From Deltaproteobacteria bacterium (GTDB lineage: Bacteria; Desulfobacterota; Desulfomonilia; UBA1062), in contig JAGGYK010000288.1 of the NCBI GenBank assembly GCA_021162585.1, forward strand, positions 1 to 32,550: a DNA stretch of 32,550 bases. The letters run 5' to 3'. Positions 12,339-32,452 of the stretch are shown in pieces (position 1 is the stretch's first letter; each line of letters begins with the position of its first letter). Below the pieces are notes generated by a model. That model made no database searches, was not told the DNA's origin, and saw only the letters and a list, made by a program, of their open reading frames with translations. Position numbers and translations under genes: made by a program.

Positions 12339-12343
12339 TATCT

Positions 12344-17251: not shown

Positions 17252-17348
17252 CTAGTACTCCTTGTTGGTTTACTAGCATAATAATTTTCGCTAGTATGCT
17301 ACCACAGAACAATTGAATTTGTATAAATATATTTTATCTGCCCTGATC

Positions 17349-18971
17349 CTACTCCTTGGGCCCGCGTACTAACCAAAGGTCACCTTTGTGACCTGCCATG
17401 ACAAGCCCAGGGACATTTTCCTTAATGAGACCTAGATATTTATCATAGGCAAGGCAGTAGACATTTCTTTCCTGTTTCATAAATGTATAAAATTCAGGCC
17501 TTGTCATGATATATTCTTTTTCCGTGCATCTTGCTTGACCAAAAACCAATTCCCCCCTGCTGTCCACTAGATATACCCTCCTTTCAGCATAAAAGCTTGA
17601 AGACGGAAAATATCTGACATAGGCACAAAGCCTTGCATCTTCGGGTACGTGGTGGATTAAGGCCTTTGTGGAACGAAGGTAGTCCCATCTTGGTGCAAAG
17701 GAAATCACTACGATCATAAACGCTATTCCAAGGCATGCAAACCCGGCAACTGCATTGTATCTTTTACCCAGCCAGACACCTGCAAATGTCCCAACAAGGA
17801 TGATTACTCCCATTATGCAGCCTATATCCATAAGCGGGACTAAATTATCTGATACCTTAAGTATGCCCCCTGATACAAGTTCAGGATATAGAATTAAGCC
17901 CGCGCCTAGAACCAGCCATAGAAAGGCTGCACAGATAAAGCCTATACTACTTCTCTTGTAATTCTCCCTGAATAAATATCCAATAAACAGGCTCAAAGGC
18001 GGGAAACAGGGAAGCACATAGGTAGCAACCTTTGAATTCGAAAGGCTGAAGAAGAGAAATATCACTCCAAACCAGCTGGCTATGTACCAAATCTCACCTG
18101 GTACCTTCCTGTTTCCTTTGCCTGTAAAGGCCCTCCTTATAGCCTCTGGAATAAGCACAGACCATGGGAGAAAACCACCTATAATCACAGGGAAAAAATA
18201 CCACCATGGCTGGTAACGCCTACACTCATTAGTGACATATCTCATAATATTCTGATCTATAAAAAAGAAGGAAAAGAAATCAGGATTCTTAAGACATACT
18301 GTCACATACCAGGGGAGTGAGACTGCAAGAAAAACCATGATCCCAACAATGGGCATTGACTCCTTTATAGATGACCACTGTCTGGTTATAATGATGTAAA
18401 GGCCAATGCCCCCAAGGGGCAAAATGACACCTATTGGTCCTTTTGTCAGAACAGCAAGACCGGCACATGCCCATGCAAGGAGATAATATGTCCCTTTCCC
18501 TTGCTTGTGTCCAAGCCAGAAAAACACCATAGTCGCTGTAATAAAAAGGGTGAGCGTCATATTTATATCCACTGTCCTGGCTAAAATAAAATATTCAATG
18601 GATGTTATAAGACTTAAGGAAGCAACAATCCCAGCCCTATTCCCCCAGAGATCTCTTGCCATTAGCCAGATAAGCGCTATGCCTCCCAGGGCGCTAAGGC
18701 AAGGGATAAGCCTTGCTGCCCACTCACTAAAACCAAAAATCTTGAAGCTTGCTGCGACCATCCACATGAACATCATGGGTTTTTCAAAATAGAGCAGGTA
18801 ATTGAGATGTGGGGTCATCCAGTCGTTTTCGACAAGGATCCCGCGGGCTATCTCTGCATATCTTCCTTCATCAGGGTCCCACAATGCCCTTTGCCCCAGG
18901 TGATAGCAACATATCACAACAGCAACACACAAGATCCATCCTAATAATTTTGTTTGTTTCCTATTCTCCAA
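17349..18971 (-). CDS. arnT: ArnT-type GT-C glycosyltransferase (undecaprenyl phosphate-alpha-L-Ara4N:lipid A transferase-like), paralog 1
   Basis: It carries the canonical ArnT N-terminal signature LWDPDEGRYAEIARG...YFEKP, is polytopic, and has a C-terminal soluble domain. The TTG start at 18971 is preceded by an AAGGAAG SD 7 nt upstream. It overlaps the end of paralog 2 by 31 nt, so the start is somewhat uncertain. Confidence 0.85.
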   Translation of the reverse strand: MENRKQTKLLGWILCVAVVICCYHLGQRALWDPDEGRYAEIARGILVENDWMTPHLNYLLYFEKPMMFMWMVAASFKIFGFSEWAARLIPCLSALGGIALIWLMARDLWGNRAGIVASLSLITSIEYFILARTVDINMTLTLFITATMVFFWLGHKQGKGTYYLLAWACAGLAVLTKGPIGVILPLGGIGLYIIITRQWSSIKESMPIVGIMVFLAVSLPWYVTVCLKNPDFFSFFFIDQNIMRYVTNECRRYQPWWYFFPVIIGGFLPWSVLIPEAIRRAFTGKGNRKVPGEIWYIASWFGVIFLFFSLSNSKVATYVLPCFPPLSLFIGYLFRENYKRSSIGFICAAFLWLVLGAGLILYPELVSGGILKVSDNLVPLMDIGCIMGVIILVGTFAGVWLGKRYNAVAGFACLGIAFMIVVISFAPRWDYLRSTKALIHHVPEDARLCAYVRYFPSSSFYAERRVYLVDSRGELVFGQARCTEKEYIMTRPEFYTFMKQERNVYCLAYDKYLGLIKENVPGLVMAGHKGDLWLVRGPKE

Positions 18972-20629
18972 AGCTCTATCTTCCTTCTTGCACGACCATC
19001 AACCTTCAGAACACACTTCCCCCTTGATCCCATAAGCTCCTTTATCCCGGCATCTACCCTGCTCGGCAGGATCAGTACATGCTGCAAATCCCCTTCCCTG
19101 ATTATCTCTGCAAAAATATCTCTATCTTCAATGTCTTCCACATAAACCCCGCCATAAAATAAACACAGGGCCTCTACGGTCTCCGTGAGCTGACAGCCTA
19201 TCACATGCTTATCAGATACCACCTTTCCCATATCCTCAAAAAAAGGCTTATAGTCCTTTTCCTGATCAATTCGAGGAATAAGCAAAGGGGTCCATAGCAA
19301 CAGTAACAAGGCCCAGCTTATAAGAATGACCAAAGGAAAAGGTTTTCTGCTATGCACCCATATATACCAGAATATACCTATCGTAAGCCCAAGCATAACA
19401 AAAGCAATCCACCAAAGACCGCCCAACTTTACATACGCAAAAGGTGCCAGCAAACCAGCTAAAAGGATAAGTCCCATTACAAACCACAAGAATAACTTTT
19501 GCCAACCCACAGCCCCCTTTTCTATTATACTAGACATCCACTGGGCTATTATCACAGCCATGGCAGGATACATGGGCAAAAAGTACAGGCCTCTCTTTGT
19601 TGAAGAAATACTTAAAATGATAAGCCCGGCTAAAAACCATGCATACATGAAGCGTGTTGTATCCTCTAGCCTCCTTGTGCTGATAAAGGCAGGGATCAAA
19701 AGGAGAAACCAGGGGGCAGCATCAGTCCATACGGTGGTGAGATAGTAGTAAAATGGCCTTATATGCCCGCCAAGATAGCTGCCCCCATGGAAAAATCTCC
19801 CGAACTGATTATAGAAATAAAATGTCCTTAGAAAATCAACGCCACCTCTTGTGTACAAGACCCATCCCCAGGCAATCATTACCAAAGCTATCAGGAGTAT
19901 GCCTGGAAGGACCCACATCTTTTTTATATGAAGATAGGGGTTGGGGATCAGGGACCGGTTCCCAGGGACAGATGTTTCTCTCGGCCCGAGCATGTTTTCA
20001 TCCTTGGTTGTGAGCGTGGAGAGCTCATGCGGGTTTATAAGAGAAAAATCTTCCTGCCATAGGGCAAAGAGGATGACTACCGCCAGTGGTATTCCAATAC
20101 CAATAAGCCCCTTTGTCATAAAGGCCAGAGCAAGGCTGATCCAGAAGAGTTTATATCCCCAGGATGATTTATCTTTATATGCAAGGGCAAATGAAAACAA
20201 GGCAGCAGTAATGAAAAAGCAAAGTGCGATATCTACCATCATCTTGTGGGAGATCTCAAAAAATTTGAAAGAAGTTGCTAAGATAAGGGTAGAAAGTCCT
20301 GCTGTTTGTTCTGTATAAATGGCCCTTGTGCCAAAGAACACCACAAGCAAGGTCCCGATAGCAAAGATGACTGATGCAAATCTGCCCACACCCTCACAAG
20401 TAGTTCCAAAAACGCGATAAAAGACGCCTGCTGTGGCAAAATACAAAGGCGGCTTCTCTAAAAATGGCCTGTTCAAGAAATGCGGCATGAGATAATCTCC
20501 GCTTACTGCCATCTCCCGAGAGATCTCTGCAACCCTTGGCTCATCAGGGCTCCACAAAGAGTGATCTAATATACCCACGAGTTGCAACAAGATGGCAATA
20601 GCAGGGAAGACTTGTACGATCTTTATCAT
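18941..20629 (-). CDS. ArnT/PMT_2-type GT-C glycosyltransferase, paralog 2
   Basis: Its signature is LWSPDEPRVAEISREM...RPFLEKPPLYF. It is polytopic. I chose the ATG at 20629 (GGTGG 5 nt upstream). The track start at 20638 is a GTG without an SD. Confidence 0.8.
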   Translation of the reverse strand: MIKIVQVFPAIAILLQLVGILDHSLWSPDEPRVAEISREMAVSGDYLMPHFLNRPFLEKPPLYFATAGVFYRVFGTTCEGVGRFASVIFAIGTLLVVFFGTRAIYTEQTAGLSTLILATSFKFFEISHKMMVDIALCFFITAALFSFALAYKDKSSWGYKLFWISLALAFMTKGLIGIGIPLAVVILFALWQEDFSLINPHELSTLTTKDENMLGPRETSVPGNRSLIPNPYLHIKKMWVLPGILLIALVMIAWGWVLYTRGGVDFLRTFYFYNQFGRFFHGGSYLGGHIRPFYYYLTTVWTDAAPWFLLLIPAFISTRRLEDTTRFMYAWFLAGLIILSISSTKRGLYFLPMYPAMAVIIAQWMSSIIEKGAVGWQKLFLWFVMGLILLAGLLAPFAYVKLGGLWWIAFVMLGLTIGIFWYIWVHSRKPFPLVILISWALLLLLWTPLLIPRIDQEKDYKPFFEDMGKVVSDKHVIGCQLTETVEALCLFYGGVYVEDIEDRDIFAEIIREGDLQHVLILPSRVDAGIKELMGSRGKCVLKVDGRARRKIELWRIGNKQNY

Positions 20630-20838
20630 TGTGCCCACCAGAAAACGTTATCCCCCTTGCTTAACCAACGCGTCGCCTATCTTGATGGCGTTTAACCATA
20701 GTCACGGCCTTTATGTTCATATCCATAGTCAGAAACCCTTGAGGGGTTACGGCCTACCCGAATACAACTGTACAATAAAACACGTTGTTAACCAGATGCT
20801 TACCTGAAGGTTATCTTTTGGTAATGTCGTAATGGATT

Positions 20839-22254
20839 CTAGTTTTGGAAGGATGTGCGAGGTAGAATAATGGTAAATGTGCTCCCCTTGCCCAGGTGGC
20901 TCTTTACAGTTATCTCTCCTCCATGCGCATGAACAATCGCTTGAGCCAGGCTGAGCCCCAGACCGTTTCCGGGCATAGATCGGCTTTGATCCCCACGATA
21001 GAACCGATCAAAGATGTGTGGTAAGTCCTCTTCGCCTATACCTACACCAAAATCAATAACCGAGATCATCATATTCGTTTGAGCTGTCTTTGCTCTTAAG
21101 AGGACCTTCCCGCCGGCAGGGGTATATTTGATGGCATTATCAAGAAGATTAGCTATTACGCGTTGAAGCCTGGCGCAATCACCAAGGATAATCAAAGGCT
21201 CTTGGGGAAGATCAACCTCGAGATGAATACCTTTATCTTCCGCAACCGGCTGAAATAACTCATAGGCATCCTTGATGATTTTTAACATATCCACATCAGT
21301 CTTTGAAAAATCCGCAATGCCAGAATCAACCTTTGCAATCTCCAGCATGGCATTGATCATACCTATAAGACGATCACTCTCTTCAACGATTATCCCTGCC
21401 ATCTCTTTATATTCATCAATGCTGGATTCTCCGGTTAATGTGGTCTCTGCGACTCCCCGAATCCTGGTAATCGGGCTTCTGAGATCATGGGCGATATTGT
21501 TTGTCACTTCTTTCAGGTCCGTAACAAGCGATTCGATCCTCTCCAGCATATCATTAAAGGACATCGCAAGATTCTCGATCTCCTTGCCTTCATTCCCTAA
21601 AGGAACCCGATAGGCAAACCCTCCTTTGCCTATGTTAACCGCTGTCTGTGTGACCCTCTCAACCCCTGTCATGGCCCTTCTGGCCACAAACCATCCCAGC
21701 AGGCCACCACATACCAACATCAGCGCCATGGCCGTCCCGAAGATCTCTCGATAATCTTCCATCAATTCTTCGTCGTCCCTTAGCGTATAACCAATCTCAA
21801 TGATGTTGCCATCATGAGTTTTCTTGTAGATCACGCGGGCCTTATACTCATATCCCGGGATAGATAGTGTCTTAAAGGCCTCTGCCTTGTTTGAAAAACC
21901 CTCAAGTATGGATTGCTGCAAATCGAGATTTGCCCATACGCCCAGATCAGAGGAGGCAAGGGTCTCCATGCTGGGAGAGAAAAGCCGGCAGAACATTCTG
22001 TTGATCCCTTCAGACTGTGTTTCACGTTCAAATTCACCCTTAAGCACCTCGATGCCACTGGTACGATAAAGTTCTCCAAACTCTTTCGCTTCATTGAGTA
22101 GATTTGCATCCATGCGCTGACTAAGGTTCGAGGTTAGCGTGATGTACATGATGAAGAAGACTGATAAAGCTAAACTGGCGAACAGAACCGTATACCACAG
22201 GGTAAGGCGGAAGGTAACTGTATGAAATATATTACCTTTTTTCTTCAAATACAT
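20839..22254 (-). CDS. membrane sensor histidine kinase, CusS/CopS heavy-metal-sensor-like (TM-periplasmic-TM-HAMP-HisKA-HATPase)
   Basis: The N-terminus FRLTLWYTVLFASLALSVFF is typical of the heavy-metal sensor kinase family. There is a second TM helix, then a HAMP region. The H-box is AHDLRSPITRI, the N-box is LLDNAIKYTP, and the G-boxes are DFGVGI and GNGLGLSLA. It overlaps the RR stop by 23 nt. Confidence 0.85.
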   Translation of the reverse strand: MYLKKKGNIFHTVTFRLTLWYTVLFASLALSVFFIMYITLTSNLSQRMDANLLNEAKEFGELYRTSGIEVLKGEFERETQSEGINRMFCRLFSPSMETLASSDLGVWANLDLQQSILEGFSNKAEAFKTLSIPGYEYKARVIYKKTHDGNIIEIGYTLRDDEELMEDYREIFGTAMALMLVCGGLLGWFVARRAMTGVERVTQTAVNIGKGGFAYRVPLGNEGKEIENLAMSFNDMLERIESLVTDLKEVTNNIAHDLRSPITRIRGVAETTLTGESSIDEYKEMAGIIVEESDRLIGMINAMLEIAKVDSGIADFSKTDVDMLKIIKDAYELFQPVAEDKGIHLEVDLPQEPLIILGDCARLQRVIANLLDNAIKYTPAGGKVLLRAKTAQTNMMISVIDFGVGIGEEDLPHIFDRFYRGDQSRSMPGNGLGLSLAQAIVHAHGGEITVKSHLGKGSTFTIILPRTSFQN

Positions 22255-22909
22255 AACCGACTCCCCTGATGGTATGGATCAGCTTGCAATCGAACGACCG
22301 GTCAATCTTGTCTCTAAGACGGCAGATCCTGGCCTCGACCACATTGGTTTGTGGGTCAAAATTATAATCCCAGACGTGTTCCATAATCATTGTCTTTGAA
22401 ACAACCCTTCCTGCATTACGCATGAGATACTCAAGAAGGGCGAATTCGCGTGGCTGAAGCTCAATCTCTCTACCCCCTCGAAAGACCTTCCGCGTGAGAA
22501 GGTCCATGGAAAGGTCGCCCACTGTCAGGCCTGTCGGTTCAGGAATGAAATTGGCCCTGCGGATGAGGGCCTGTATGCGTGCCAACAACTCCGAGAATGC
22601 AAATGGCTTGACCAGATAGTCATCCCCGCCGGTCTGCAGCCCCTTAATGCGGTCATCTACCGAGCTCTTGGCGCTGAGGACGAGAATGGGCATCACCACT
22701 CTCTTCATACGAAGCTCTTCAATCAAGGTCAGACCGTCCAGCTTGGGTAACATTATATCAACCACTGCCGCATCATAGGACCCGGCCAATGCCAGATACA
22801 GCCCATCTTCACCGTCTACAGCATGTTCCACGACAAAACCGGCCTGCTGAAAGCCCTTCATTATAAACGAAGCAGTCCTTATATCATCCTCGACAAGAAG
22901 GATCTTCAT
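22232..22909 (-). CDS. OmpR-family winged-helix response regulator, CusR/CopR-like
   Basis: Starts MKILLVEDD and has the REC motif DIMLPKLDG. The C-terminal stretch VWDYNFDPQTNVVEARICRLRDKID....LIHTIRGVGYVF is characteristic of the CusR/CopR/CzcR subgroup. I moved the start to ATG 22909, because the 18-codon extension in the track lacks support. Confidence 0.9.
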   Translation of the reverse strand: MKILLVEDDIRTASFIMKGFQQAGFVVEHAVDGEDGLYLALAGSYDAAVVDIMLPKLDGLTLIEELRMKRVVMPILVLSAKSSVDDRIKGLQTGGDDYLVKPFAFSELLARIQALIRRANFIPEPTGLTVGDLSMDLLTRKVFRGGREIELQPREFALLEYLMRNAGRVVSKTMIMEHVWDYNFDPQTNVVEARICRLRDKIDRSFDCKLIHTIRGVGYVFEEKR

Positions 22910-22946
22910 AAAAATACTGCCTCTCTCGATAGACCAATACTTATCA

Positions 22947-24542
22947 TCACAGACATTCCTCAATGTTTGACTTATGCATTAGACCATCTGGCATAATATA
23001 AGCCAGTCTTGCCTGCTTGCTGCCGATTTTTTGTTCTAATATGATGTCCACCCCGGCCCTTTCCTTCAAGGCATTAAGCACAGCATCATGGCGCTCTGCC
23101 CAGATAAAGAGCCCACCCTTTTTAATGTCTTTTGGATGGACTACCTCCTTAAAGGTCTTACCTGTAAGCATTGGCAAGACACCTTCGAAGATCTCGTCTG
23201 GAGATAGTATAACTATATCGCTACCTTGTGCCGCGGATAAGGCCTTTTTTGTAAATCCGAGAAAGTCTTGTCTTGGCTTCATATAATCATAATATATCGT
23301 GGTAGAACAGCCAATTCCAATGCATATCACCACAACAAGGGAAAAACCTTTTACATGTTTAAACACCCTTTGCCTGGCAACTACAATAAGGGCTGCTACA
23401 GATACTATACCAAGGGATATACCCGCGGTGGGATACCCTATAAAGATGCCTATGAAAGGCGCAATACAAAAGAGTATAGCAACTGCCCATGTAATTTTTA
23501 ACATAACATCCTCCCACTTTTTATGTATGCCACACTCAAGAAAACTCGCTATCATACATGCTGCTGCCGGATATAACGGGACCAGATATACACCCCTTTT
23601 GGTAGATGCCAGGCATAAAAGGATAAATGGCCCAATAAACCAGCTTATATACGGATCATCCTTGAATCCCCTTATAGACCTTATAAATGCAGGGATAAAG
23701 AGGAACGTCCATGGCAAGAAATCCCTTGGGAAGTGATCAAGATAATACATTATGCCATGATGGTGCCCAAGGCTTAAGGCCTCGGTTGCACCTGTAAAAC
23801 GCCCTATATTATTAACGACTATGACCTCTCTCACAAATGGCCAGCCACCCGTATGAAAGAGGTATACAATCCAGGGCGCAATAGGAACCAGCATAAGGGC
23901 TATTACAATATAAGGTTTTATCCGCCAGATTAGTCTTATGTCCTTTTGCCTTATGATATCTGTTATTATGGCGGCACCAATTATACCAACACCTACCAGG
24001 CCCTTTACCATAAATGTGACCCCAAGCGCTATGCCAAGGAGGATAGAATCTCTTATCCTATAGTGCTCTATCAGTCCAAGGTATGCATACATGGCAAGAA
24101 CAACACCAAATACCAGCGCAATATCCACCTGTATCCATCTCGATATCTGAAAAAACTCCCATGAGGTAGCCAGGATTCCTGCGGCAATGAGAGCGTAGAT
24201 ATATCCTTCTCTCCCGGATACCATAAAGTAAACTATAATAAGGGTCAATATACAAAAGGATAGAGATACCAATCTATACGATATATCCTTGTCTTTACCA
24301 AAGACAGAGCCAGACAGGGCACCTGCCATAAAATATAGCGGCGGCTTCTCTAGAAATGGCCTGCCGTTTAGATAAGGGATACCGTAATCGCCACTGTAGG
24401 CCATCCCAGCACATATGCCTGCAACCCTGGGCTCATCCGGCCTCCATATACCATGGTTAATGCCTGGAAATAACATAAGAAGAAGCAAAAGAAGGCATAT
24501 AGCAGCCCAACTCCTCGTATTCATAGAAAAAGCACATAACAC
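22947..24542 (-). CDS. ArnT/PMT_2-type GT-C glycosyltransferase, paralog 3
   Basis: Its signature IWRPDEPRVAGICAGM...RPFLEKPPLYF is closest to paralog 2. It is polytopic. The GTG start at 24542 has an AGGTGG SD 7 nt upstream. The alternative ATG at 24524 has no SD. Confidence 0.8.
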   Translation of the reverse strand: MLCAFSMNTRSWAAICLLLLLLMLFPGINHGIWRPDEPRVAGICAGMAYSGDYGIPYLNGRPFLEKPPLYFMAGALSGSVFGKDKDISYRLVSLSFCILTLIIVYFMVSGREGYIYALIAAGILATSWEFFQISRWIQVDIALVFGVVLAMYAYLGLIEHYRIRDSILLGIALGVTFMVKGLVGVGIIGAAIITDIIRQKDIRLIWRIKPYIVIALMLVPIAPWIVYLFHTGGWPFVREVIVVNNIGRFTGATEALSLGHHHGIMYYLDHFPRDFLPWTFLFIPAFIRSIRGFKDDPYISWFIGPFILLCLASTKRGVYLVPLYPAAACMIASFLECGIHKKWEDVMLKITWAVAILFCIAPFIGIFIGYPTAGISLGIVSVAALIVVARQRVFKHVKGFSLVVVICIGIGCSTTIYYDYMKPRQDFLGFTKKALSAAQGSDIVILSPDEIFEGVLPMLTGKTFKEVVHPKDIKKGGLFIWAERHDAVLNALKERAGVDIILEQKIGSKQARLAYIMPDGLMHKSNIEECL

Positions 24543-24609
24543 AATCCAGCCACCTGCACAACAACACCATGATTTTAGAAAAAGTGAACAGTAAATAGTA
24601 AGAGAAGTG

Positions 24610-24637
24610 TTGGGTTTTGGGTTTTGAGTGTTGGGTG
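24610..24637 (+). repeat. heptanucleotide tandem array (TTGGGTK)x4
   Basis: The units are ttgggtt ttgggtt ttgagtg ttgggtg. Confidence 0.9.
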
Positions 24638-24647
24638 ATTAAGAATA

Positions 24648-24668
24648 GTTGAGAGTCGAGAGTCGAAA
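24648..24668 (+). repeat. heptanucleotide tandem array (GTYGARA)x3
   Basis: The units are gttgaga gtcgaga gtcgaaa. Confidence 0.85.
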
Positions 24669-24672
24669 AGAT

Positions 24673-24701
24673 GAAAGATAGAAGATAGAAGATAGAAGAT
24701 A
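24673..24701 (+). repeat. heptanucleotide tandem array (GAAGATA)x3 plus one 8-nt variant
   Basis: The units are gaaagata gaagata gaagata gaagata. Confidence 0.9.
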
Positions 24702-24828
24702 AAAAACAGTTTTATGGAAGATGTAGAGGCCTTTTGCCCTCATCGGCCCCGGGGGTTACTCCCAATAACATCCCCCTAGCCCCCGAATCTGTCCGTGCAG
24801 ATTAAGGGGAATCAACCCCAGGCCTTTT

Positions 24829-24870
24829 TGTCCGCCAACTTGTCCTGGCGTCTTGTCCGGAGATTTGTCC
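24829..24870 (+). repeat. periodic TGTCC array (4 copies at 12-13 nt spacing)
   Basis: TGTCC occurs at 24829, 24841, 24854 and 24866, with a fifth copy at 24790. Confidence 0.7.
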
Positions 24871-24890
24871 ATTGTAGCTTAAAGCGAAGT

Positions 24891-24909
24891 CGGAAGCGGA
24901 CGCGAAGGC
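24891..24909 (+). repeat. left copy of an 18/19-nt direct repeat flanking the plus-strand operon
   Basis: cggaagcggacgcgaaggc differs from cggaacggacgcgaaggc at 30934-30951 by one 1-nt indel. The identical 13-mer core is cggacgcgaaggc. Confidence 0.75.
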
Positions 24910-25010
24910 GGATTGATCGTTATTTGCTAAACACTTGCCTGATATCTCTTAGAAGCCTCCTCAAAACTGATGGCTTTTTACGAGTGCATTAAAGCTAAAC
25001 CTTTTAGATA

Positions 25011-25042
25011 TGCAAAATATGTGTGATAGGCCTGCAAATATT
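25011..25042 (+). promoter_or_regulatory. candidate enhancer (UAS) pair: direct repeat TGCAAA(A)TAT x2
   Basis: tgcaaaatat (25011-25020) and tgcaaatatt (25033-25042) start 22 nt apart, about two helical turns. They sit about 70-100 nt upstream of the -24 element at 25110. This is the usual position of bEBP binding sites. Confidence 0.3.
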
Positions 25043-25109
25043 GTATAAACCCTGACTGGAACTCAGCCTAACACCTTGATATAACTAATTTATTGTTTTG
25101 GCGTTGGCG

Positions 25110-25125
25110 TGGTATTGTATTTGCT
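25110..25125 (+). promoter_or_regulatory. candidate sigma54 (-24/-12) promoter of the DUF2334-GT4-UPF0104-HK-RR operon
   Basis: TGGTATTGTATTTGCT compares with the consensus TGGCACG-N4-TTGCW. The invariant GG and GC are at the exact canonical spacing, and TGG, A, TTGC and W all match. The predicted TSS is near 25136. It is followed by the SD GAAGGAAGG (25143-25151) and GTG 25157. Confidence 0.45.
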
Positions 25126-25156
25126 TATGTATCTTCCCTTTAGAAGGAAGGTCAAG

Positions 25157-25921
25157 GTGCAAAAATTTATAGCAGTCACTATACATGATGTAACAGAGGA
25201 TACACTTGAAGAGACTAAGGGTATTGCAGAGGCCCTTAATAGTATAGGGGTGACTAATATGTCTCTTCTCGTTATACCAATGCCCCACTCGGGTCTTCCA
25301 ATAGAGAAATCCCCGGCCCTAGTTTCATGGCTTAGGCACAGGGAAGCCCTAGGTGATGAGGTGGTAATACACGGCCTTACGCACTTCATAGACAGCCCAA
25401 AGGGCATAATAGGTCGATACTATGCCAGGGGAGTGGGGGAATTTCAACACCTGTCTTATGCTGTGGCAAGGGCCAGGTTAGACCAAGCCAACAAGGCATT
25501 TGTTGATATGGGTCTTGAGCCTAAAGGATTTGTAGCCCCGGCATGGCTTACGAGCAAAGGGACAAAAAACGCTATCCTTGATATGGGGTTTTACTATACC
25601 ACGCACATGGGCATCTGCTCTCCAGATAGGGCTTTCGTCCTTTCTCCGGTTATCGTATTTGGTGCAAGAAATCAGGCGACAGCCCTATTCTCTTCCGGAC
25701 TTGCGGATATCATGTCGCATGTATTGAGAAATACCTCCTGCTTCAGGGTGGCGCTTCACCCGCCAGATCTGTCCCGAAAAAGACTTTTTTATAAGGCTGT
25801 AGATATCATAAAGCAAGCTCTGGAGTGCAGGAAAGCTACTACTTATAATGATTTCCTGTCGTTTAACACTGCTACAGATATGGTTAATCAGAGGAGAAGA
25901 GAGGGGGATGTATGCGAATAG
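25157..25921 (+). CDS. DUF2334-family predicted deacetylase (glycoside hydrolase/deacetylase beta/alpha-barrel superfamily)
   Basis: The motif order matches the family pattern as I recall it: FIAVTIHDVTEDT, SLLVIPMPH, LVSWLRHREALGDEVVIHGLTH, FVAPAW. The start is uncertain. GTG 25157 has the only good SD, while ATG 25127 and GTG 25109 (the track start) have none and would overlap the sigma54 promoter candidate. Confidence 0.7.
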   Translation: MQKFIAVTIHDVTEDTLEETKGIAEALNSIGVTNMSLLVIPMPHSGLPIEKSPALVSWLRHREALGDEVVIHGLTHFIDSPKGIIGRYYARGVGEFQHLSYAVARARLDQANKAFVDMGLEPKGFVAPAWLTSKGTKNAILDMGFYYTTHMGICSPDRAFVLSPVIVFGARNQATALFSSGLADIMSHVLRNTSCFRVALHPPDLSRKRLFYKAVDIIKQALECRKATTYNDFLSFNTATDMVNQRRREGDVCE

Positions 25922-27177
25922 GGCTGTTTTCTAATACATATTGGCCGTTTACCGGAGGCGTGCCAGTGGCCGTGGATACTATGGCTGAACAACTTATGGC
26001 AAAGGGACATAAGGTCTCTATTATCACATCTACAAATGCTGGTGAAATGAAGGACCCCCCTTATGTTCACCGTATTAATTATCTCAGTCTCCCTGGTATC
26101 CCAGAGTCAAGATTGAAGATATCTAACCGGAACCAATGGATATGGAATCTCTTCTGGGCTATAGATACCCCTCTCGGAGGAAGGATAGCCCTTTCTGCGA
26201 GGGATCAAATCAGGCATATAGTCGAGGATGAAGCGATCGATATCATCCATGTAAACCAGCCATTTGGTCTGGGCCTGCAGGCACTTCTTGTAGCTAAAGA
26301 AAAAGGGATCCCCTGTATATATACCTTCCATACCCAATATGAACACTACCTGAAGGGCATCCTTGTTGAAAACCCCCTTATTTCTCATATTGTCTCGCAT
26401 TACAGCTATAAATTTGCCAATAGTTGCGACTATGTGATCGCCCCTTCTGAAACCATCAAAACATTACTGCTAAAGCACCATGTAAGGGTTCCAATAAAGG
26501 TTATACCTACTGGAGTAGGTAATGCATTTGCCTATAGGGGGAATAGGGCGTTTATAAGAAGAAAGTACAACATATCAAAAAATACAAAGGTGTTTATAAC
26601 AGTCTCCAGGCTTAGCTCCGCAAAGAATGTAGGGGCCATAATAAGGGCATTTTCTCTCATCCATGGTAAAGAACCTGATACACATCTTCTTATAGTAGGA
26701 GATGGTAGAGAAAAGGCCGCCTTAGAAAGGGAAGCGGAAAAGCTCGGTATAACAGACGCTGTTAGCTTTACAGGGGATATACCAAGAAAGAACCTTCCCC
26801 ATTATTATGCAGGCGCTGATATATTCCTATTTGCATCCAGATACGAATCCCAGGGGATTGTGCTTATCGAGGCCATGGCAACAGGGCTTCCCATAATATC
26901 CTTTGATATACCAGCTGCTCGGGAGGCGCTTAAGGGCTCAGGTGCATCCCTGGTAAATAATGCAGAGGAGATGGCCTTAAAGGCTGTATGTTTATTAAAG
27001 GATAAAAGCCTAAGAAGAGAGATATCCATTTGTTCCAGGGAAAAATCCTTACTGTTCGACCCATCAAGGCTTGCAGATGAGACATTAAAATTGTATACTT
27101 ATTTGATCACCGCTGATAACAAAAGGGTATCTTCCATTGCTCAGGATCTCATTATAGGGAATGCTGGTGTATCATGA
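25912..27177 (+). CDS. GT4-family (GT-B, retaining) glycosyltransferase, N-terminus resembling diacylglycerol glycosyltransferases
   Basis: The N-terminus MRIGLFSNTYWPFTGGVPVAVDTMAEQLMAKGHKVSIIT recalls alMGS/CpoA-type MRIG.F.DTY.P..GV starts. The E-x7-E motif is ESQGIVLIEAMATGLPIIS. A GAGGGGG SD is present. It overlaps the upstream gene by 10 nt. Confidence 0.85.
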   Translation: MRIGLFSNTYWPFTGGVPVAVDTMAEQLMAKGHKVSIITSTNAGEMKDPPYVHRINYLSLPGIPESRLKISNRNQWIWNLFWAIDTPLGGRIALSARDQIRHIVEDEAIDIIHVNQPFGLGLQALLVAKEKGIPCIYTFHTQYEHYLKGILVENPLISHIVSHYSYKFANSCDYVIAPSETIKTLLLKHHVRVPIKVIPTGVGNAFAYRGNRAFIRRKYNISKNTKVFITVSRLSSAKNVGAIIRAFSLIHGKEPDTHLLIVGDGREKAALEREAEKLGITDAVSFTGDIPRKNLPHYYAGADIFLFASRYESQGIVLIEAMATGLPIISFDIPAAREALKGSGASLVNNAEEMALKAVCLLKDKSLRREISICSREKSLLFDPSRLADETLKLYTYLITADNKRVSSIAQDLIIGNAGVS

Positions 27178-28181
27178 ATAGACTGAAGGTAAAACGTTAT
27201 TGGGTATGGTTATTCCTTATCATATCCGGCTTGGCTGCCATATTGATTTTAAAGAATATACCTCCTGGAGAATTGGCCCAAGGGCTAAAGATTATAAGCC
27301 CGTCAGGTCTGCTGGGCGCATTAAGTGCGGTACTTATCATGTGGGTAGCAGATGCCATGAGGTTAAAGGTCCTAAGCAGGGCTGCCGGATCAAACATAGG
27401 AGTAGCCACAGGGTTGAGACTTGTGTGGGGAGGGCTTCTTTTCTCAGGCATTACCCCCTTTGAATTCGGGGGAGGGGCATACCAAATCCTTTTGATGAAT
27501 AAGAAAGGCCTGAGTTCTGCTGAGAGCACGGCAATCATTACCACAAAAGGCCTGCTTGCCATGATAGTCCTCTTAGTTATGGCACCTGTTGTACTCTGTC
27601 TTTATCCAGGGGTTTTACCCCATAGTGCGTTTAAATACCTTATGGTTGTTACATGTACACTCATGAGCATAAGCTCAACTATCATGGTAATATCATGCCT
27701 GAGACCAATGATTGTGACCAGCACAGGCCATAAGATCTTATCCGTTTTTTTTAAAGCCCATATAATCCATAGGCCTACAAAAACCAGATGGGATAAGGCA
27801 TGGAGTGTATGGGCAGATCAATGCCATAGTTCATTCATTACTATCTTCAGGAAAGGCAGTGGAATCTATATGACTGCTGCCACTATATGTACGTTTGTCT
27901 TCTTATTAGGTCAATTTGCTGTGGCCCCGCTCCTATTAATAGGGGCAGGTATTCATATAGATATGTGGCAACTGATACTCCTCCAGTTTCCCCTTACTGT
28001 ATTACTGTATTTCATACCAACACCTGGCTCCAGTGGGGTGGCGGAAGGTGGGTTCTATGTAATATTTGCATCATTTGCCCCACCTGTCTTAATAGGTATG
28101 TTGACATTAATGTGGCGTTTTTTAACCTTTTATCTGGGTATGATCTTGGGCATGATATTCGTACCTGTCAGAGCCGAGTAA
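27174..28181 (+). CDS. UPF0104 / LPG_synthase_TM (MprF flippase-domain-like) polytopic membrane protein, second copy in window
   Basis: 335 aa and multi-TM. The family-typical stretch is ADAMRLKVLSRAAGSNIGVATGLRLVWGGLLFSGITPFEFGGGAYQILLMNKKGL. Its start overlaps the GT4 stop as ATGA. Confidence 0.7.
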   Translation: MNRLKVKRYWVWLFLIISGLAAILILKNIPPGELAQGLKIISPSGLLGALSAVLIMWVADAMRLKVLSRAAGSNIGVATGLRLVWGGLLFSGITPFEFGGGAYQILLMNKKGLSSAESTAIITTKGLLAMIVLLVMAPVVLCLYPGVLPHSAFKYLMVVTCTLMSISSTIMVISCLRPMIVTSTGHKILSVFFKAHIIHRPTKTRWDKAWSVWADQCHSSFITIFRKGSGIYMTAATICTFVFLLGQFAVAPLLLIGAGIHIDMWQLILLQFPLTVLLYFIPTPGSSGVAEGGFYVIFASFAPPVLIGMLTLMWRFLTFYLGMILGMIFVPVRAE

Positions 28182-28185
28182 CGCT

Positions 28186-29541
28186 ATGACCACAGAGCCA
28201 GATACCATTTATACTCCCAGGTTTAGAGGGCTGGTGATCTTTGTGTTGATAATAGGATTTGGGATATTATTAGGAATTTTATTTAGCCGCGAGGCCATGT
28301 ATGAAACAAGGGTCAGGATCGATTTACTAAAAAAGGAAGCACATACTATTACAGCGCTACTTAAAGACCCGGCTATAAGGTATATAAAATCAGATAAAAA
28401 AGATACTATGTTTGAAAAGATGGTCTCCATCCTGGGTTCTTCGTCACTAGGCGTTCTTGAGGTCCATCTACTTAATGCTGAAGATATTGAGATCTTTGGC
28501 ACCAAAAAGGAACATAGGGATATAAGTCAAAAAAAGAAGTATAATTTCAATATGATATTAAAAAAATTAGAGGGGGGACGTCTTGGCCTCCAGATAAGAA
28601 CCCCTCTTTATTCTGATAGCACACTTCTAGGTTTTATGGAGATAAATTACCCGGAAGACCTAAGCCACAGCTCATTCTTTAAGAGTAAGAAAGAGGTAAG
28701 ACGAGAAACTATTATGCTTATAATAGCGGTCACAATCACTGTCCTCATTATTATATACATACTGCTCATCCGTTATGACAGACATACTGCCGTAGCTATT
28801 ACTAAGGAAATGGAGCAAAGGAACCTGGCGCTATCTGAGGAGGTAAAGAGAAATGAACGTCTGGCAGTCCTGGGTAGGATGACAGCATCCATTGCACATG
28901 ACCTCAGGAGCCCTATTACCTCAATAAAGACCTTTGCCCAACTCCTGGAAACAAAATATAATGACCCTGAATTCCGAAAAGATTTTATTAGGACTGCGAT
29001 TAACCAGAGCGACCGCATAGACCGGTTTATAAACAATATGCTGGACTATGCGAGGCCCCTTACCCTGCATATGGATCTCTGGGACATCTCTGGGGTCATA
29101 GACGATGCAATGATGGAGGTGACTGGTCCAGAGAGAAAAGATGTGGCCATCAATAAAGAAGTCCCCAATGGCATGATGGTGATGTGTGATAGGGACCATA
29201 TGCTTACTCTAATAGAAAACATCATCTTAAATGCCTGTCAGGCTGTAGACCCTGGCGGGCAGATTATGATAAAGGCCGGGGATTTAGACAGGTCTTTCTT
29301 TATAGAGATAACAGATAATGGACGCGGGATATCTCAAAAGATACGAGAGCATATATTTGAACCGTTTTTCACCACAAAAAACCATGGTACAGGACTAGGT
29401 CTGGCCATATGTGAAAAGGTAGTTAATGCACATCACGGCAGGATAGAGGTGGACTCTAGTCCAGAGAAAGGCACAAGCGTAAAGGTGATTATACCTGCGC
29501 AGGAAGATCGAGATGAAACGATTATTGATAGTCGACGATGA
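28186..29541 (+). CDS. membrane sensor histidine kinase (TM - about 150 aa extracytoplasmic domain - TM - HisKA - HATPase_c), NtrB/AtoS-like
   Basis: The TM helices are LVIFVLIIGFGILLGILF and IMLIIAVTITVLIIIYILLI. The H-box is SIAHDLRSPIT, the N-box is IILNACQA, and the G-boxes are DNGRGI and GTGLGLAI. It starts 4 nt after the UPF0104 stop. Confidence 0.85.
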   Translation: MTTEPDTIYTPRFRGLVIFVLIIGFGILLGILFSREAMYETRVRIDLLKKEAHTITALLKDPAIRYIKSDKKDTMFEKMVSILGSSSLGVLEVHLLNAEDIEIFGTKKEHRDISQKKKYNFNMILKKLEGGRLGLQIRTPLYSDSTLLGFMEINYPEDLSHSSFFKSKKEVRRETIMLIIAVTITVLIIIYILLIRYDRHTAVAITKEMEQRNLALSEEVKRNERLAVLGRMTASIAHDLRSPITSIKTFAQLLETKYNDPEFRKDFIRTAINQSDRIDRFINNMLDYARPLTLHMDLWDISGVIDDAMMEVTGPERKDVAINKEVPNGMMVMCDRDHMLTLIENIILNACQAVDPGGQIMIKAGDLDRSFFIEITDNGRGISQKIREHIFEPFFTTKNHGTGLGLAICEKVVNAHHGRIEVDSSPEKGTSVKVIIPAQEDRDETIIDSRR

Positions 29542-30841
29542 CGATGCCATAAGACTCTCTCTTGCAACTGCCTTTAAAGACACCTTTGAGACGAGAGAGG
29601 CATCAGGCGGAAGAGATGCTATAGATATACTGGGAGAATGGCTGCCCGACGTGGTTCTTCTAGATCAACGTATGTTTGACATGGATGGCCTTGAGACGCT
29701 CAGCCACATAAAAGACATTGATCCTGATATCCCTGTAGTTATGATAACTGCCTATGGTACGATATCAGATGCAGTAAAGGCCATGAAACAGGGGGCCACA
29801 GACTATATTCAAAAACCCTATGATATAGAGGAGGTTCGGATAATAGTAAACAGGGCAGCAACCATAGGGGCTATGAAGAGAGAAATCAAGGAACTCAAGG
29901 GCGAAATGAACATGTTTGGTATGGTAGGGGCTAGTGAGGCCATGAAGGATGTCTTTGAGACCATAGAAGAATTTGCCCCAACTGACATCAATATCTTGAT
30001 TACTGGCCCTACAGGTGTAGGTAAAGAGATGGCTGCAAGGGCCATACATCATAAGAGTTTGAGAAGAGAAGGCGTTTTTGTCCCCATAAACCTGGCTGCT
30101 ATACCGGAAAGCCTAATGGAATCTGAACTCTTTGGTTATGATAAAGGGGCATTTACAGGGGCGAGTACAAGCAAAGCCGGCAAGGTGGAACTCGGTGATA
30201 AAGGCACACTTTTCCTGGATGAAATAGGCGATATGGGTAAGACCCTGCAGGCAAAGTTACTTCGATTCTTAGAGACCAGGGTAGTGGAACGCCTGGGCAG
30301 TACACGCTATCGGCCTGTTGATGTAAGGATAATATCAGCTACTAATCAGGATTTATCTAATGCAGTAGATACAGGGGCCTTCAGGGAAGACCTTTTTTAC
30401 CGGCTTAATACAGTATATATAAATATACCTCCGCTTAAGGAAAGACTTGTGGATATTTCAATTTTAACAGATCATTTTATCTCAATCTATAATCAAAGAT
30501 TTAAAAAAGACATCCAGGATGTATCTAAAGAGGTTATGGATAGATTTCTTTCATATCCATGGCGAGGCAATGTGAGGGAGCTTATGCACACAATAGAATT
30601 TGGAGTGGCCAAGTGCAAGCAATCACTTATATCACTTTCTGATCTGCCACCACAGATGCTGTCTTCACAACAGACAGTTAATGGAGAATCTGCCATGGTT
30701 GAAGAAGTAAAACAACTGGAACGTCAGATGATACAGAATGCACTTATTACTACGGACAGCAATCGCACTAAGGCAGCAGAACTTCTTGGTATAAGCTTGA
30801 GATCACTGCAATACAAACTTAAAAAATATAATATGGTTTGA
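29513..30841 (+). CDS. sigma54-dependent response regulator (NtrC/AtoC family)
   Basis: Starts MKRLLIVDDDD and has the REC motif LLDQRMFDMDG. Walker A is GPTGVGKE, with the GAFTGA loop and Walker B GTLFLDEIG. The Fis-type HTH is NRTKAAELLGISLRSLQYKLKKY. It overlaps the HK by 29 nt and has an AGGAAG SD. Confidence 0.9.
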   Translation: MKRLLIVDDDDAIRLSLATAFKDTFETREASGGRDAIDILGEWLPDVVLLDQRMFDMDGLETLSHIKDIDPDIPVVMITAYGTISDAVKAMKQGATDYIQKPYDIEEVRIIVNRAATIGAMKREIKELKGEMNMFGMVGASEAMKDVFETIEEFAPTDINILITGPTGVGKEMAARAIHHKSLRREGVFVPINLAAIPESLMESELFGYDKGAFTGASTSKAGKVELGDKGTLFLDEIGDMGKTLQAKLLRFLETRVVERLGSTRYRPVDVRIISATNQDLSNAVDTGAFREDLFYRLNTVYINIPPLKERLVDISILTDHFISIYNQRFKKDIQDVSKEVMDRFLSYPWRGNVRELMHTIEFGVAKCKQSLISLSDLPPQMLSSQQTVNGESAMVEEVKQLERQMIQNALITTDSNRTKAAELLGISLRSLQYKLKKYNMV

Positions 30842-31149: not shown

Positions 31150-32452
31150 CTACCTTATTATGGTCGTATCCATTATGGCGCCATGCCTGAATATCCTTAA
31201 AGAAATCTTGTGCCCAGAAAGACCAGACAAGACCTCTTTAAACCCTCCTATGCCCTCTATATCCTTACCATTTATCCTTATAATGACATCTCCCGGGGCT
31301 AGGCCAGTGGAGGCTGCCGGGCTACGTGCTTTTACCTTAAAGACAAGAACGCCTTTTAAATCTTGAGGAAAACTCAATCTTTCTCTTGTTACATCCGTTA
31401 TCTCTCCAACAGTAGCGCCTGCTAAAAATCTATTGTCCTTTATCACAAACTCGTTTGATGTAATCTTGGCCTTGGATAGATCGCCTATGATAATACTGGA
31501 AACCTTCTCTTTTCCATTTCTTAAAATCTTGACCCTTGCTGAAGATCCGGGCAGAAGCTCCGATGCCATAATCCTTAACCCAGATGCCTGTGTAACCTTC
31601 TTTGAGTTTATCTCTAGAATAACATCACCCCTTTTAATACCACCCTTATCCGCAGGAGAATCATCCACCACACCAGCAACCAGAACACCTTTAGTAGAGG
31701 TAAGGTGCATGGCCTTTGCAATCTTTGGTGTGATGTCCTGAACAGTAACGCCAAACCACCCCCTTACTACCTTGCCATAGCGAATAATACTCTCCTTTAT
31801 ATTTATGGCCAGATCAACCGGTATGGCAAACCCAATGCCGACATTTCCTCCTGACTTCGACAAAATAGCGGTGTTAATCCCAATAAGTTCTCCCTTCATA
31901 TTCACAAGCGCACTTATAATCCCCATGGTTACAGTCTGACTCAAACCAAAGGGATTACCAACAGCCAACACCACGGTCCCTATACGTAAATTCGAGGAAT
32001 TCCCTATAGCTATGGCAGGCAGGTCCTTGGCTGCTATCTTTATTACAGCAACATCACTCTTCGGATCGCTACCTATAATACTAGCCTCAAAAATCCTCCC
32101 GTCAGCCAGCCTCACCTCTACCTTATCCGCGCCACCTACCATGTGATTATTCGTAATAATATATCCATCCCATGAGATGATAACTCCAGATCCTAATGCC
32201 TTTTCTAATCTCTTGCGAGGCACAGGATCAAAAAAAATCCTTAAAGAATGGATCAGACAAAAACGGGGATTGTTCTGCCATCACCGTCTTTACCGAAGAG
32301 ATATTCACTACAGACGGCAACACCTTCTTAGCCACATCAGCTATCAGATCCCCTTGAAATAGATCCCGCGGGGCAGCATAAGATGATCTACTCAAAAGTA
32401 TAAATAAAACAGAGGCCATTAATACTATCTTAATCTTGCTATTTCTTTGCAT
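31150..32452 (-). pseudogene. htrA: HtrA/DegP-family periplasmic serine protease with two PDZ domains, frameshifted and lacking the catalytic-serine segment
   Basis: ORF 32228..32452 encodes the signal peptide and N-terminus (LPSVVNISS...FFKDFF). ORF 31150..32223 continues in a different frame (LGSGVIIS.DGYIITNNHMV, SDVAVIKI, two PDZ domains). The junction is an A8/T8 run at 32230-32237, and removing one base fuses the frames. The family block GRS...IQTDAAINxGNSGGxL is absent between GIISAL and VNMKGELIGINTAI. Confidence 0.8.

Follow-up and report, generated by a model that had tools for sequence, protein, structure and literature searches.

A putative gpgSDF-type amino-glycolipid operon with its own sigma-54 two-component system in a Deltaproteobacteria-type metagenome genome

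The 32,550-nucleotide (nt) stretch of DNA analysed here (contig JAGGYK010000288.1, hereafter the window) spans an entire contig of a metagenome-assembled genome, and the closest relatives of its deacetylase are labelled 'Deltaproteobacteria bacterium'. Five tightly packed genes on its plus strand encode a DUF2334 deacetylase (gene 1), a GT4 glycosyltransferase (gene 2), a UPF0104 membrane protein (gene 3), a sensor histidine kinase (gene 4), and a sigma-54 response regulator (gene 5). With a probability of roughly 0.62, these genes form an amino-glycolipid module of the gpgSDF type that is governed by a sigma-54 two-component system of its own. The most likely role of the operon is to link an amino sugar to a membrane lipid and to flip the product outward, lowering the negative charge of the cell surface.

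The enzyme trio and its characterised relatives

According to a previous study, the gpgSDF operon of Pseudomonas aeruginosa PA14 encodes a GT4 enzyme (GpgS, cd03814), a COG3233 'predicted deacetylase' (GpgD), and a UPF0104 flippase-like protein (GpgF), and makes N-acetylglucosaminyl-phosphatidylglycerol (GlcNAc-PG), which is converted into glucosaminyl-phosphatidylglycerol (GlcN-PG), as demonstrated by transposon mutants, complementation of gpgD, and expression in Escherichia coli (Khan, Palmer and Guan, J Bacteriol 2025; bioRxiv 2024; PMC12713373). The gpgS mutant is devoid of both lipids, while the gpgD mutant builds up GlcNAc-PG (PMC12713373). The NCBIfam equivalogs NF053787, NF053788, and NF053789 (GlcNAc-PG synthase, GlcNAc-PG deacetylase, and GlcN-PG flippase) derive from that work, and a control locus from Pseudomonas paraeruginosa passes the three cutoffs with 627, 422, and 515 bits, respectively. 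The GT4, DUF2334, and UPF0104 genes of the window are likewise contiguous in one operon, which runs in the order D-S-F instead of the S-D-F of gpgSDF. The cassette is not a strict orthologue of gpgSDF, as its three proteins stay far below these cutoffs. A sequence-only reading of the window had regarded the trio as an undescribed pathway with no function assigned to this combination. That claim is out of date, because gpgSDF (2024/2025) and the analogous hexSDF/hexRK system already cover the concept, and the window appears to carry a variant of a characterised trio. The proposed course from an N-acetylhexosaminyl (HexNAc)-lipid to a hexosaminyl (HexN)-lipid, followed by flipping, fared better in part: in the homologous gpgSDF of P. 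aeruginosa the chemistry of the two cytoplasmic steps has been demonstrated, whereas the flipping is presumed.

The hexSDF genes of Clostridioides difficile, which are induced by the adjacent two-component system hexRK, lead to aminohexosyl-hexosyl-diradylglycerol, an amino-glycolipid protecting against cationic antibiotics (mBio 2023, PMC10128005). This system shares with the window the logic of synthase, deacetylase, and MprF-like flippase together with an adjacent dedicated two-component system. However, the annotations given for HexS and HexD are monogalactosyldiacylglycerol synthase and polysaccharide deacetylase, respectively (PMC10128005), while the window deacetylase matches only PF10096 and its glycosyltransferase only GT4-type models (E <= 0.01); judged by the annotation in that paper, two of the three enzymes are thus analogous, not orthologous, to those of the window. 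In addition, that paper contains no link between HexRK and sigma-54, and the host is Gram-positive.

The product of gene 1 matches PF10096 (DUF2334) with 94.1 bits (E = 1.2e-26; gathering score 26), and its sole NCBIfam match is the GlcNAc-PG deacetylase model, with 138 bits against a cutoff of 280. It is homologous over its full length to the GpgD orthologue of P. paraeruginosa (31% identity, E = 7e-36). An AlphaFold2 model of the protein (predicted local distance difference test score 91.7) was searched against the PDB with Foldseek, and the top 19 matches are CE4/NodB-type deacetylases, esterases, or ArnD (E down to 4e-8), including acetyl-xylan esterases, peptidoglycan and chitin deacetylases, ArnD, and the N-deacetylase part of NDST1. 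At the sequence level, the family profile matches the peptidoglycan deacetylase 3qbu around the HxxxH region. Residues H10-D11, E68, H72-x3-H76, E95, W130, R197, and H201 are invariant in 32 family sequences, fitting the Asp-His-His metal site and the distal His of the CE4/NodB superfamily; metal binding is predicted on this basis, and the His/Asp site that had been anticipated is matched by a CE4-like fold with an invariant H-D...HxxxH...H arrangement. A scan for hydrophobic segments found neither a signal peptide nor a predicted transmembrane (TM) segment. We propose that the enzyme is a cytoplasmic, GpgD-like lipid-HexNAc N-deacetylase (DUF2334/COG3233) with a CE4/NodB-like fold. A search of 1.84 billion representative proteins returned 995 matches at E <= 1e-3 and four at E <= 1e-30, one of which is the 50% cluster of the enzyme's own relatives, and the window deacetylase is an isolated branch of its family. 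DUF2334 as a whole is a modest family of ~1,000 clusters at 50% identity, whose members usually adjoin a GT4 gene. Our literature searches on DUF2334/COG3233 found only the gpgSDF paper and incidental mentions, and that on the LgmC deacetylase found nothing relevant.

Gene 2 belongs to the retaining GT4 family of the GT-B fold, as PF13439 (101 bits) and PF00534 (124 bits) both exceed their gathering thresholds. Its best NCBIfam match is Mgs (NF049988; 156 bits, cutoff 400), followed by BshA (TIGR03999; 115 bits, cutoff 273.7), and IagA/BgsA (103 bits, below cutoff) and TIGR04157 also rank above the GpgS model, which comes fifth (86 bits, E = 2e-24, cutoff 480); models of processive diacylglycerol glucosyltransferases were matched as well. 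The nearest solved structure, at only 78 bits, is the UDP-GlcNAc-dependent BshA. The assembly index contains no exact record of the gene 2 protein, although proteins of the window are present in the protein collection (P0062 and P0074). Orthologues of gene 2 are 61-64% identical, and the next relatives are proteins of 29-36% identity, including Streptococcus '1,2-diacylglycerol 3-glucosyltransferase' proteins (~35%). The streptococcal relatives with this annotation, at 249 bits, are themselves under the Mgs cutoff of 400. The Mgs family and these streptococcal enzymes align with the window GT4 over nearly the full length, but their donor is UDP-glucose, and neither a deacetylase nor a flippase is linked to them; none of the Mgs-like relatives looked up adjoins such a gene. 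The similarity to GpgS is limited to 24% identity over 265 residues, a partial alignment. In a neighbour-joining tree, the window GT4 and two orthologues fall into an Mgs-like clade, apart from the other deacetylase-linked GT4s (72 of 100 bootstraps), while the GT4 partners of DUF2334 at three other loci (L019, L025, and L008) have GpgS as their best NCBIfam match (284, 212, and 131 bits, respectively). The resemblance to diacylglycerol glycosyltransferases that had been remarked earlier is thus upheld by profile, BLAST, and tree. The window GT4 is no GpgS orthologue but a member of a different, Mgs-like lineage, which may reflect the replacement of the glycosyltransferase in an ancestral module of the gpgSDF type. 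The net charge and isoelectric point of the GT4 N-terminal domain were also tried as a proxy for membrane or acceptor (window, L001/L002, GpgS, and streptococcal Mgs-like proteins) and proved uninformative, being inconsistent even among orthologues.

Gene 3 encodes a protein of 335 residues with about eight hydrophobic segments, which matches PF03706 (LPG_synthase_TM) with 110 bits over profile positions 2-302 of 302 and the flippase-like model TIGR00374 with 73 bits (cutoff 43), placing it in the UPF0104 family. All the Pfam families expected for the trio were accordingly found, and by Pfam and fold neither the deacetylase nor the membrane protein falls outside the superfamily first suggested for it. 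The GlcN-PG flippase model NF053789 reaches 40 bits against a cutoff of 320, and the identity to GpgF is 19%, a likeness at family level only; a search of the PDB with the protein sequence gave no match. As in the lysyl/alanyl-phosphatidylglycerol synthase-flippase MprF, a flippase-type PF03706 domain is present, N-terminal in that protein, and the shared aim would be a less negative lipid in the outer leaflet. However, the gene 3 product is a single-domain protein with no aminoacyl-phosphatidylglycerol synthase domain and no match to NF033480, so that it is not a bifunctional MprF, and the charge would come from a deacetylated sugar instead of an amino acid. It is proposed to be an amino-lipid translocase resembling the UPF0104/MprF flippase domain.

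A second UPF0104/LPG_synthase_TM protein (15204-16130, minus strand, 308 residues, PF03706 with 111 bits) is encoded inside the arn-like cluster of the window, between an ArnB-like aminotransferase and an ArnC-like GT2, approximately at the site of ArnE/ArnF in enteric arn operons. Its relation to the gene 3 product does not go beyond family level, and it may serve here as the flippase for carrier-lipid-linked 4-amino-4-deoxy-L-arabinose (Ara4N).

Operon arrangement and sigma-54 control

The five genes are packed as one operon, and the junctions, read directly, are all as first described. Genes 1 and 2 overlap by 10 nt (25912/25921), with the stop codon TAG of gene 1 at 25919-25921 and a ribosome-binding site (RBS) GAGGGGG before ATG 25912; genes 2 and 3 share ATGA (27174-27177); genes 3 and 4 are separated by 4 nt (28181/28186); and genes 4 and 5 overlap by 29 nt (29513/29541), with the RBS AGGAAG before gene 5. 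The start of gene 1 needs correction: position 25109, taken over from the longest mechanical open reading frame (ORF), is probably 48 nt too early. The most likely start is GTG 25157, which is preceded by the strong RBS GAAGGAAGG (25144-25151) and is also the start in the public record (P0062, 254 residues). Since a conserved sigma-54 promoter element sits at 25110-25125, that segment would not be coding.

The five-gene order is kept at loci L001 and L002, with proteins 49-76% identical to those of the window, and in the near-identical contig L086, while L095 has the first three genes and then reaches the contig end; such conservation shows that the packing is not due to chance. A metagenome scan added only one window-type cassette locus, L095, and the five-gene form including kinase and sigma-54 activator was seen only in the window's small clade (L001, L002, and L086, with at least three genes in L095). 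The cassette is rare, being found in only a few Deltaproteobacteria-type metagenome genomes.

The three enzyme families are associated more widely. When one genome per species was scanned, DUF2334 loci numbered at least 591, of which 80 were retrieved; with two further relatives, this gives 82 loci in a sample biased towards Verrucomicrobiota. At 63 of them, the DUF2334 gene has a GT4 gene on its own strand no more than 3 kb away, and at 15, in several phyla, a UPF0104 gene is located within 3.5 kb. Both partners are present at 14 of the 82 loci; these loci include Pseudomonas and Stutzerimonas (S-D-F), Acidobacteriota, and several uncultured lineages.

Gene 4 matches HisKA and HATPase_c, and its TM segments at residues 10-28 and 171-189 flank an extracytoplasmic loop of ~140 residues. 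The N-terminal 188 residues have no Pfam match, and the nearest named families, AtoS and ZraS, are both below cutoff. Gene 5 combines Response_reg (PF00072), Sigma54_activat (PF00158, 227 bits), and the Fis-type helix-turn-helix domain HTH_8 (PF02954), and its translation contains intact Walker A (GPTGVGKE) and Walker B (LFLDEIG) motifs as well as an intact GAFTGA loop; it shares 76% identity with its orthologues in L001 and L002. The operon's own membrane sensor and sigma-54 activator, as proposed in the sequence-only reading, are confirmed by these domains. In this respect the window differs from gpgSDF, which is described as a three-gene operon with no mention of such regulators (PMC12713373).

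The -24/-12 element upstream of gene 1 lies 32 nt before GTG 25157 (Table 1), and an equivalent element, TGGTATcgtatTTGCT, precedes the deacetylase start by ~30 nt in L001, L002, and L095 (deacetylase ~50% identical). The exact pattern TGGTATN5TTGCT occurs once per cassette locus and in none of 85 other loci. A scan of the upstream intergenic region for sigma-70 promoters found no promoter-like site, and a terminator scan gave two weak internal sites, both within gene 2, fewer than the mean of 5.7 in shuffled sequences. Further upstream, two related 15-nt sites with a start-to-start distance of 22 nt are found near -117 and -95 relative to the inferred transcription start, which is the usual location for enhancer-binding proteins. 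When the upstream regions of the window, L001, L002, and L095 are aligned, these sites remain recognisable (GCAAaTTAyGTATAC and GCAAyTATGGTATAC) while the flanks diverge, and they are probably bound by the response regulator. An AAA+ domain with GAFTGA and a conserved GG/GC promoter are what is expected of a sigma-54 operon with its enhancer-binding protein, and positive autoregulation by the operon's own activator is suggested as the simplest reading. The membrane kinase would respond to an extracytoplasmic cue by phosphorylating the NtrC-type regulator, which from the two upstream sites would activate the sigma-54 promoter before the deacetylase gene and with it all five genes, including its own.

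Table 1. Genes and candidate regulatory sites of the operon
Feature	Position	Strand	Basis or remark
Candidate upstream activator sites GCAAAATATGTGTGA (25012-25026) and GCAAATATTGTATAA (25034-25048)	25012..25048	+	upstream-region alignment
Predicted sigma-54 -24/-12 promoter element TGGTATtgtatTTGCT	25110..25125	+	GG and GC at canonical spacing
Gene 1, deacetylase	25157..25921 (longest mechanical ORF 25109-25921)	+	ORF list, Pfam
Gene 2, GT4	25912..27177	+	ORF list, Pfam
Gene 3, UPF0104 membrane protein	27174..28181	+	ORF list, Pfam
Gene 4, sensor histidine kinase	28186..29541	+	ORF list, Pfam
Gene 5, sigma-54 response regulator	29513..30841	+	ORF list, Pfam

Another sigma-54 system is encoded on the minus strand of the window, where a GAF-PAS histidine kinase (5266-7260) is followed by an NtrC-type activator (3803-5221); sigma-54 control is evidently in wide use in this organism. 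No Rfam family was matched anywhere in the window at gathering thresholds.

Proposed pathway and alternative products

In the proposed amino-glycolipid pathway, the GT4 enzyme would work at the cytoplasmic face of the inner membrane and transfer an N-acetylhexosamine, most likely GlcNAc from UDP-GlcNAc, to a glycerolipid, and the cytoplasmic metal-dependent DUF2334 deacetylase would then strip off the acetyl group to leave a free amine. A HexNAc donor is supported by BshA as the closest solved structure and by the retention of the deacetylase. Since the GT4 lineage lies among diacylglycerol alpha-glycosyltransferase-like enzymes, diacylglycerol would be the favoured acceptor, with a net-cationic HexN-diacylglycerol as product; phosphatidylglycerol is a possible acceptor too, which would give zwitterionic GlcN-PG as in Pseudomonas. 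At its most specific, and with rather less than even odds, we suggest that the Mgs-like GT4 may join UDP-GlcNAc and diacylglycerol, the end product being glucosaminyl-diacylglycerol with a net positive charge, and that this glycosyltransferase-swapped gpgSDF module, induced via its dedicated sigma-54 envelope-sensing circuit, forms a membrane-lipid arm parallel to the adjacent Ara4N arm for lipid A.

Several points weigh against the assignment to a gpgSDF-type module and its details. All three enzymes score far below the gpgSDF cutoffs (138/280, 86/480, and 40/320 bits), so that function is transferred across a deep divergence. No named enzyme is more than 36% identical to the GT4, which also remains below the Mgs cutoff, and for this reason donor and acceptor cannot be read from its sequence; its Mgs-like placement in the tree is moderately supported (72/100), and its closest non-orthologous relatives stand in unrelated contexts, including a polysaccharide cluster. 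Flippase activity is unproven even for GpgF (PMC12713373), and HexF is dispensable for product formation (PMC10128005). On the side of regulation, the bare sigma-54 motif (up to two mismatches) is no rarer in the window than expected by chance (16 against 16.3), so that support for the promoter element comes from its position and conservation. Finally, the organism is uncultured, and the locus is known from its DNA sequence.

The alternative that deserves most attention, though we regard it as unlikely, is that the cassette is a functional gpgSDF orthologue, with phosphatidylglycerol as acceptor and zwitterionic GlcN-PG as product, whose GT4 is merely very divergent. The sole characterised homologue of the deacetylase does act on GlcNAc-PG, the GT4 still matches the GpgS model at E = 2e-24, and phosphatidylglycerol is universal in bacteria while free pools of diacylglycerol are small. 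However, Mgs, BshA, and IagA/BgsA all outscore GpgS, the identity to GpgS (24% over 265 residues) compares with ~35% to diacylglycerol glucosyltransferase-like proteins, and the enzyme groups apart from every other deacetylase-linked GT4, whereas the GT4 partners at L019, L025, and L008 are recognised best by the GpgS model itself. The same GT4 also matches the IagA/BgsA and processive diacylglycerol glucosyltransferase models, whose members act on glycolipids, and in C. difficile HexSDF extends a glycolipid under a dedicated two-component system (PMC10128005). A corresponding addition of HexNAc to monohexosyl-diacylglycerol, deacetylated to HexN-hexosyl-diacylglycerol, is nevertheless improbable here, as HexS and HexD are annotated as other enzyme types than the GT4 and DUF2334 proteins of the window, and neither the operon nor the window contains a gene for the synthase of the first glycolipid.

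The surroundings of the cassette bring lipid A into consideration, since three ArnT-like genes flank it in both the window and L001, and the order of sugar transfer, deacylation, and flipping mirrors that of ArnC, ArnD, and ArnEF. The cassette could then supply a flipped, deacetylated, carrier-lipid-linked HexN, which an adjacent ArnT-like GT-C paralogue would move to lipid A; such a carrier-lipid donor serves for the addition of glucosamine and galactosamine to lipid A in Bordetella and Francisella. Arn resembles the cassette in reducing envelope charge and in its CE4-type deacylase ArnD, a structural neighbour of the window deacetylase, but it relies on a carrier lipid, GT2 and GT-C enzymes, and a lipid A target, and in the window it is under a separate OmpR-type two-component system. 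Polyprenyl-phosphate sugar synthases are, to our knowledge, GT2 enzymes, whereas the cassette encodes a GT4 while the arn cluster has a GT2 of its own. An ArnT-like gene lies within 8 kb at only one of 84 DUF2334 loci (L001), and gpgSDF functions in E. coli without such a partner (PMC12713373), which makes this role very improbable. A product other than a lipid is the least credible of all. The pairs BshA/BshB, MshA/MshB, and PIG-A/PIG-L follow the same sequence of GlcNAc transfer and N-deacetylation, BshA is both the closest solved structure and the second-best NCBIfam match of the GT4, and CE4-fold enzymes commonly deacetylate polysaccharides, so that a soluble glucosamine conjugate of the bacillithiol or mycothiol type, or a partly deacetylated polysaccharide, might be considered. 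But the acceptors in those pairs are malate, inositol phosphate, or phosphatidylinositol, with no flippase partner, and their deacetylases are, as we take it, members of the LmbE/PIG-L family and not of DUF2334. The GT4 falls short of the BshA cutoff (115 against 273.7 bits), and neither an LmbE-type deacetylase or cysteine ligase gene nor a polymer synthase or exporter was seen in the window. Moreover, the conserved UPF0104 protein would have no role if the product were soluble, and the usual site of action of such polysaccharide deacetylases is outside the cytoplasm, whereas the window enzyme has no signal peptide or TM segment.

If the proposed pathway is correct, the GT4/DUF2334/UPF0104 route to amino-sugar lipids would reach beyond Pseudomonas, to uncultured Deltaproteobacteria-type genomes next to arn. 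It would also be modular, as a glycosyltransferase exchangeable for one of a diacylglycerol-glycosyltransferase lineage predicts a different, possibly fully cationic lipid, and a regulatory design for such a module would be at hand, consisting of a sensor kinase, a sigma-54 activator, conserved upstream sites, and a -24/-12 promoter. Glucosaminyl diglyceride was reportedly described in Bacillus megaterium in the early 1970s with no genes assigned, and a HexN-diacylglycerol outcome would carry weight for that reason: this would be the first gene set assigned to glucosaminyl-diacylglycerol, giving a genetic handle on a poorly described lipid class and a compact three-gene cassette for membrane-charge engineering. 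If the product is GlcN-PG, the locus would be an ordinary distant member of the family. A literature lead under the term 'GlcN-DAG' was discarded, as the term there denotes the glucosyl-diacylglycerol substrates of MprF and not glucosamine.

Other DUF2334 loci and neighbouring genes

Variants of the DUF2334 locus were noted in other genomes. A GNAT acetyltransferase gene (~215-220 codons) is inserted between the GpgS-like GT4 and DUF2334 genes, with UPF0104 following, at L019 (7324-7974), L100 (5180-5842), L080, and L026; its product might re-acylate the freed amine with another acyl group, giving a further lipid variant. In Verrucomicrobiota (Chthoniobacterales, Udaeobacter; many of the loci from L005 to L081, e.g., L008 8717-11158), the DUF2334 gene is followed by one for a protein of 800-870 residues, whose C-terminal 360 residues are a GpgS-like GT4 and whose N-terminal ~450 residues have no Pfam or NCBIfam match. 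A flippase-GT4 fusion was considered for this protein and rejected, as the N-terminal 440 residues show no Pfam match and a single hydrophobic segment, and a comparison with UPF0104 gave an hhalign probability of 0.1%. At L101 (2567-5171), a DUF2334 homologue with an N-terminal extension (P0006, 334 residues) overlaps the end of an Lnt-like apolipoprotein N-acyltransferase gene and has no GT4 nearby, so that DUF2334 may have other lipid-related partners.

The complete arn-like cluster of the window (11484-24542, minus strand) comprises an ArnD-like deacetylase, a dehydrogenase, a formyltransferase, a GT2, an aminotransferase, and three ArnT-like GT-C proteins, with an OmpR-type two-component system embedded in it. 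The cassette is thus placed back-to-back with an arn cluster under a separate sensor, as had been noticed earlier. In L001, the cassette stands beside three ArnT-like genes, a DedA gene, and a DedA-PAP2 fusion. This neighbourhood supports a theme of envelope charge remodelling, and no direct enzymatic link to arn is indicated, given that the other 83 DUF2334 loci contain no ArnT-like gene. A family-wide association of DUF2334 with ArnT was rejected accordingly, since L001 belongs to the window's own clade and its ArnT-like genes reflect local synteny.

The ArnT-like paralogues, all on the minus strand, are located at 17349-18971, 18941-20638, and 22947-24542, and the OmpR-type response regulator and a HAMP histidine kinase lie between them at 20839-22963. 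The first alone is similar to ArnT along its whole length (242 bits), while the other two match mainly in their N-terminal parts, which suggests that these two have different substrates.

Downstream of the operon, an ORF at 31150-32223 (minus strand) encodes an HtrA/DegP-like protease with a trypsin-like domain and two PDZ domains, in which the catalytic His and Asp regions are visible. The usual GNSGG serine motif was not seen in its translation, which runs ...GIISALVNMKGELIGINTAI... as if ~25 residues were missing; it may be a pseudo-protease or reflect an assembly defect. Finally, the intergenic stretch at ~24576-24920 contains ~350 nt that are absent from L085, the closest divergent relative (deacetylase 89% identical), in which the sequence continues as ...CAACAAT-ACCATGATTTGCTAAAC. 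The stretch has no Rfam match and no second copy in the window; it opens with short tandem repeats (GTTGGGTTTTGGGTTTTGAGTGTTGGGTG, GAGAGTCGAGAGTCG, and AGATAGA x4), followed by a GC-rich part with inverted repeats, and could be an insertion in the window or a deletion in L085.

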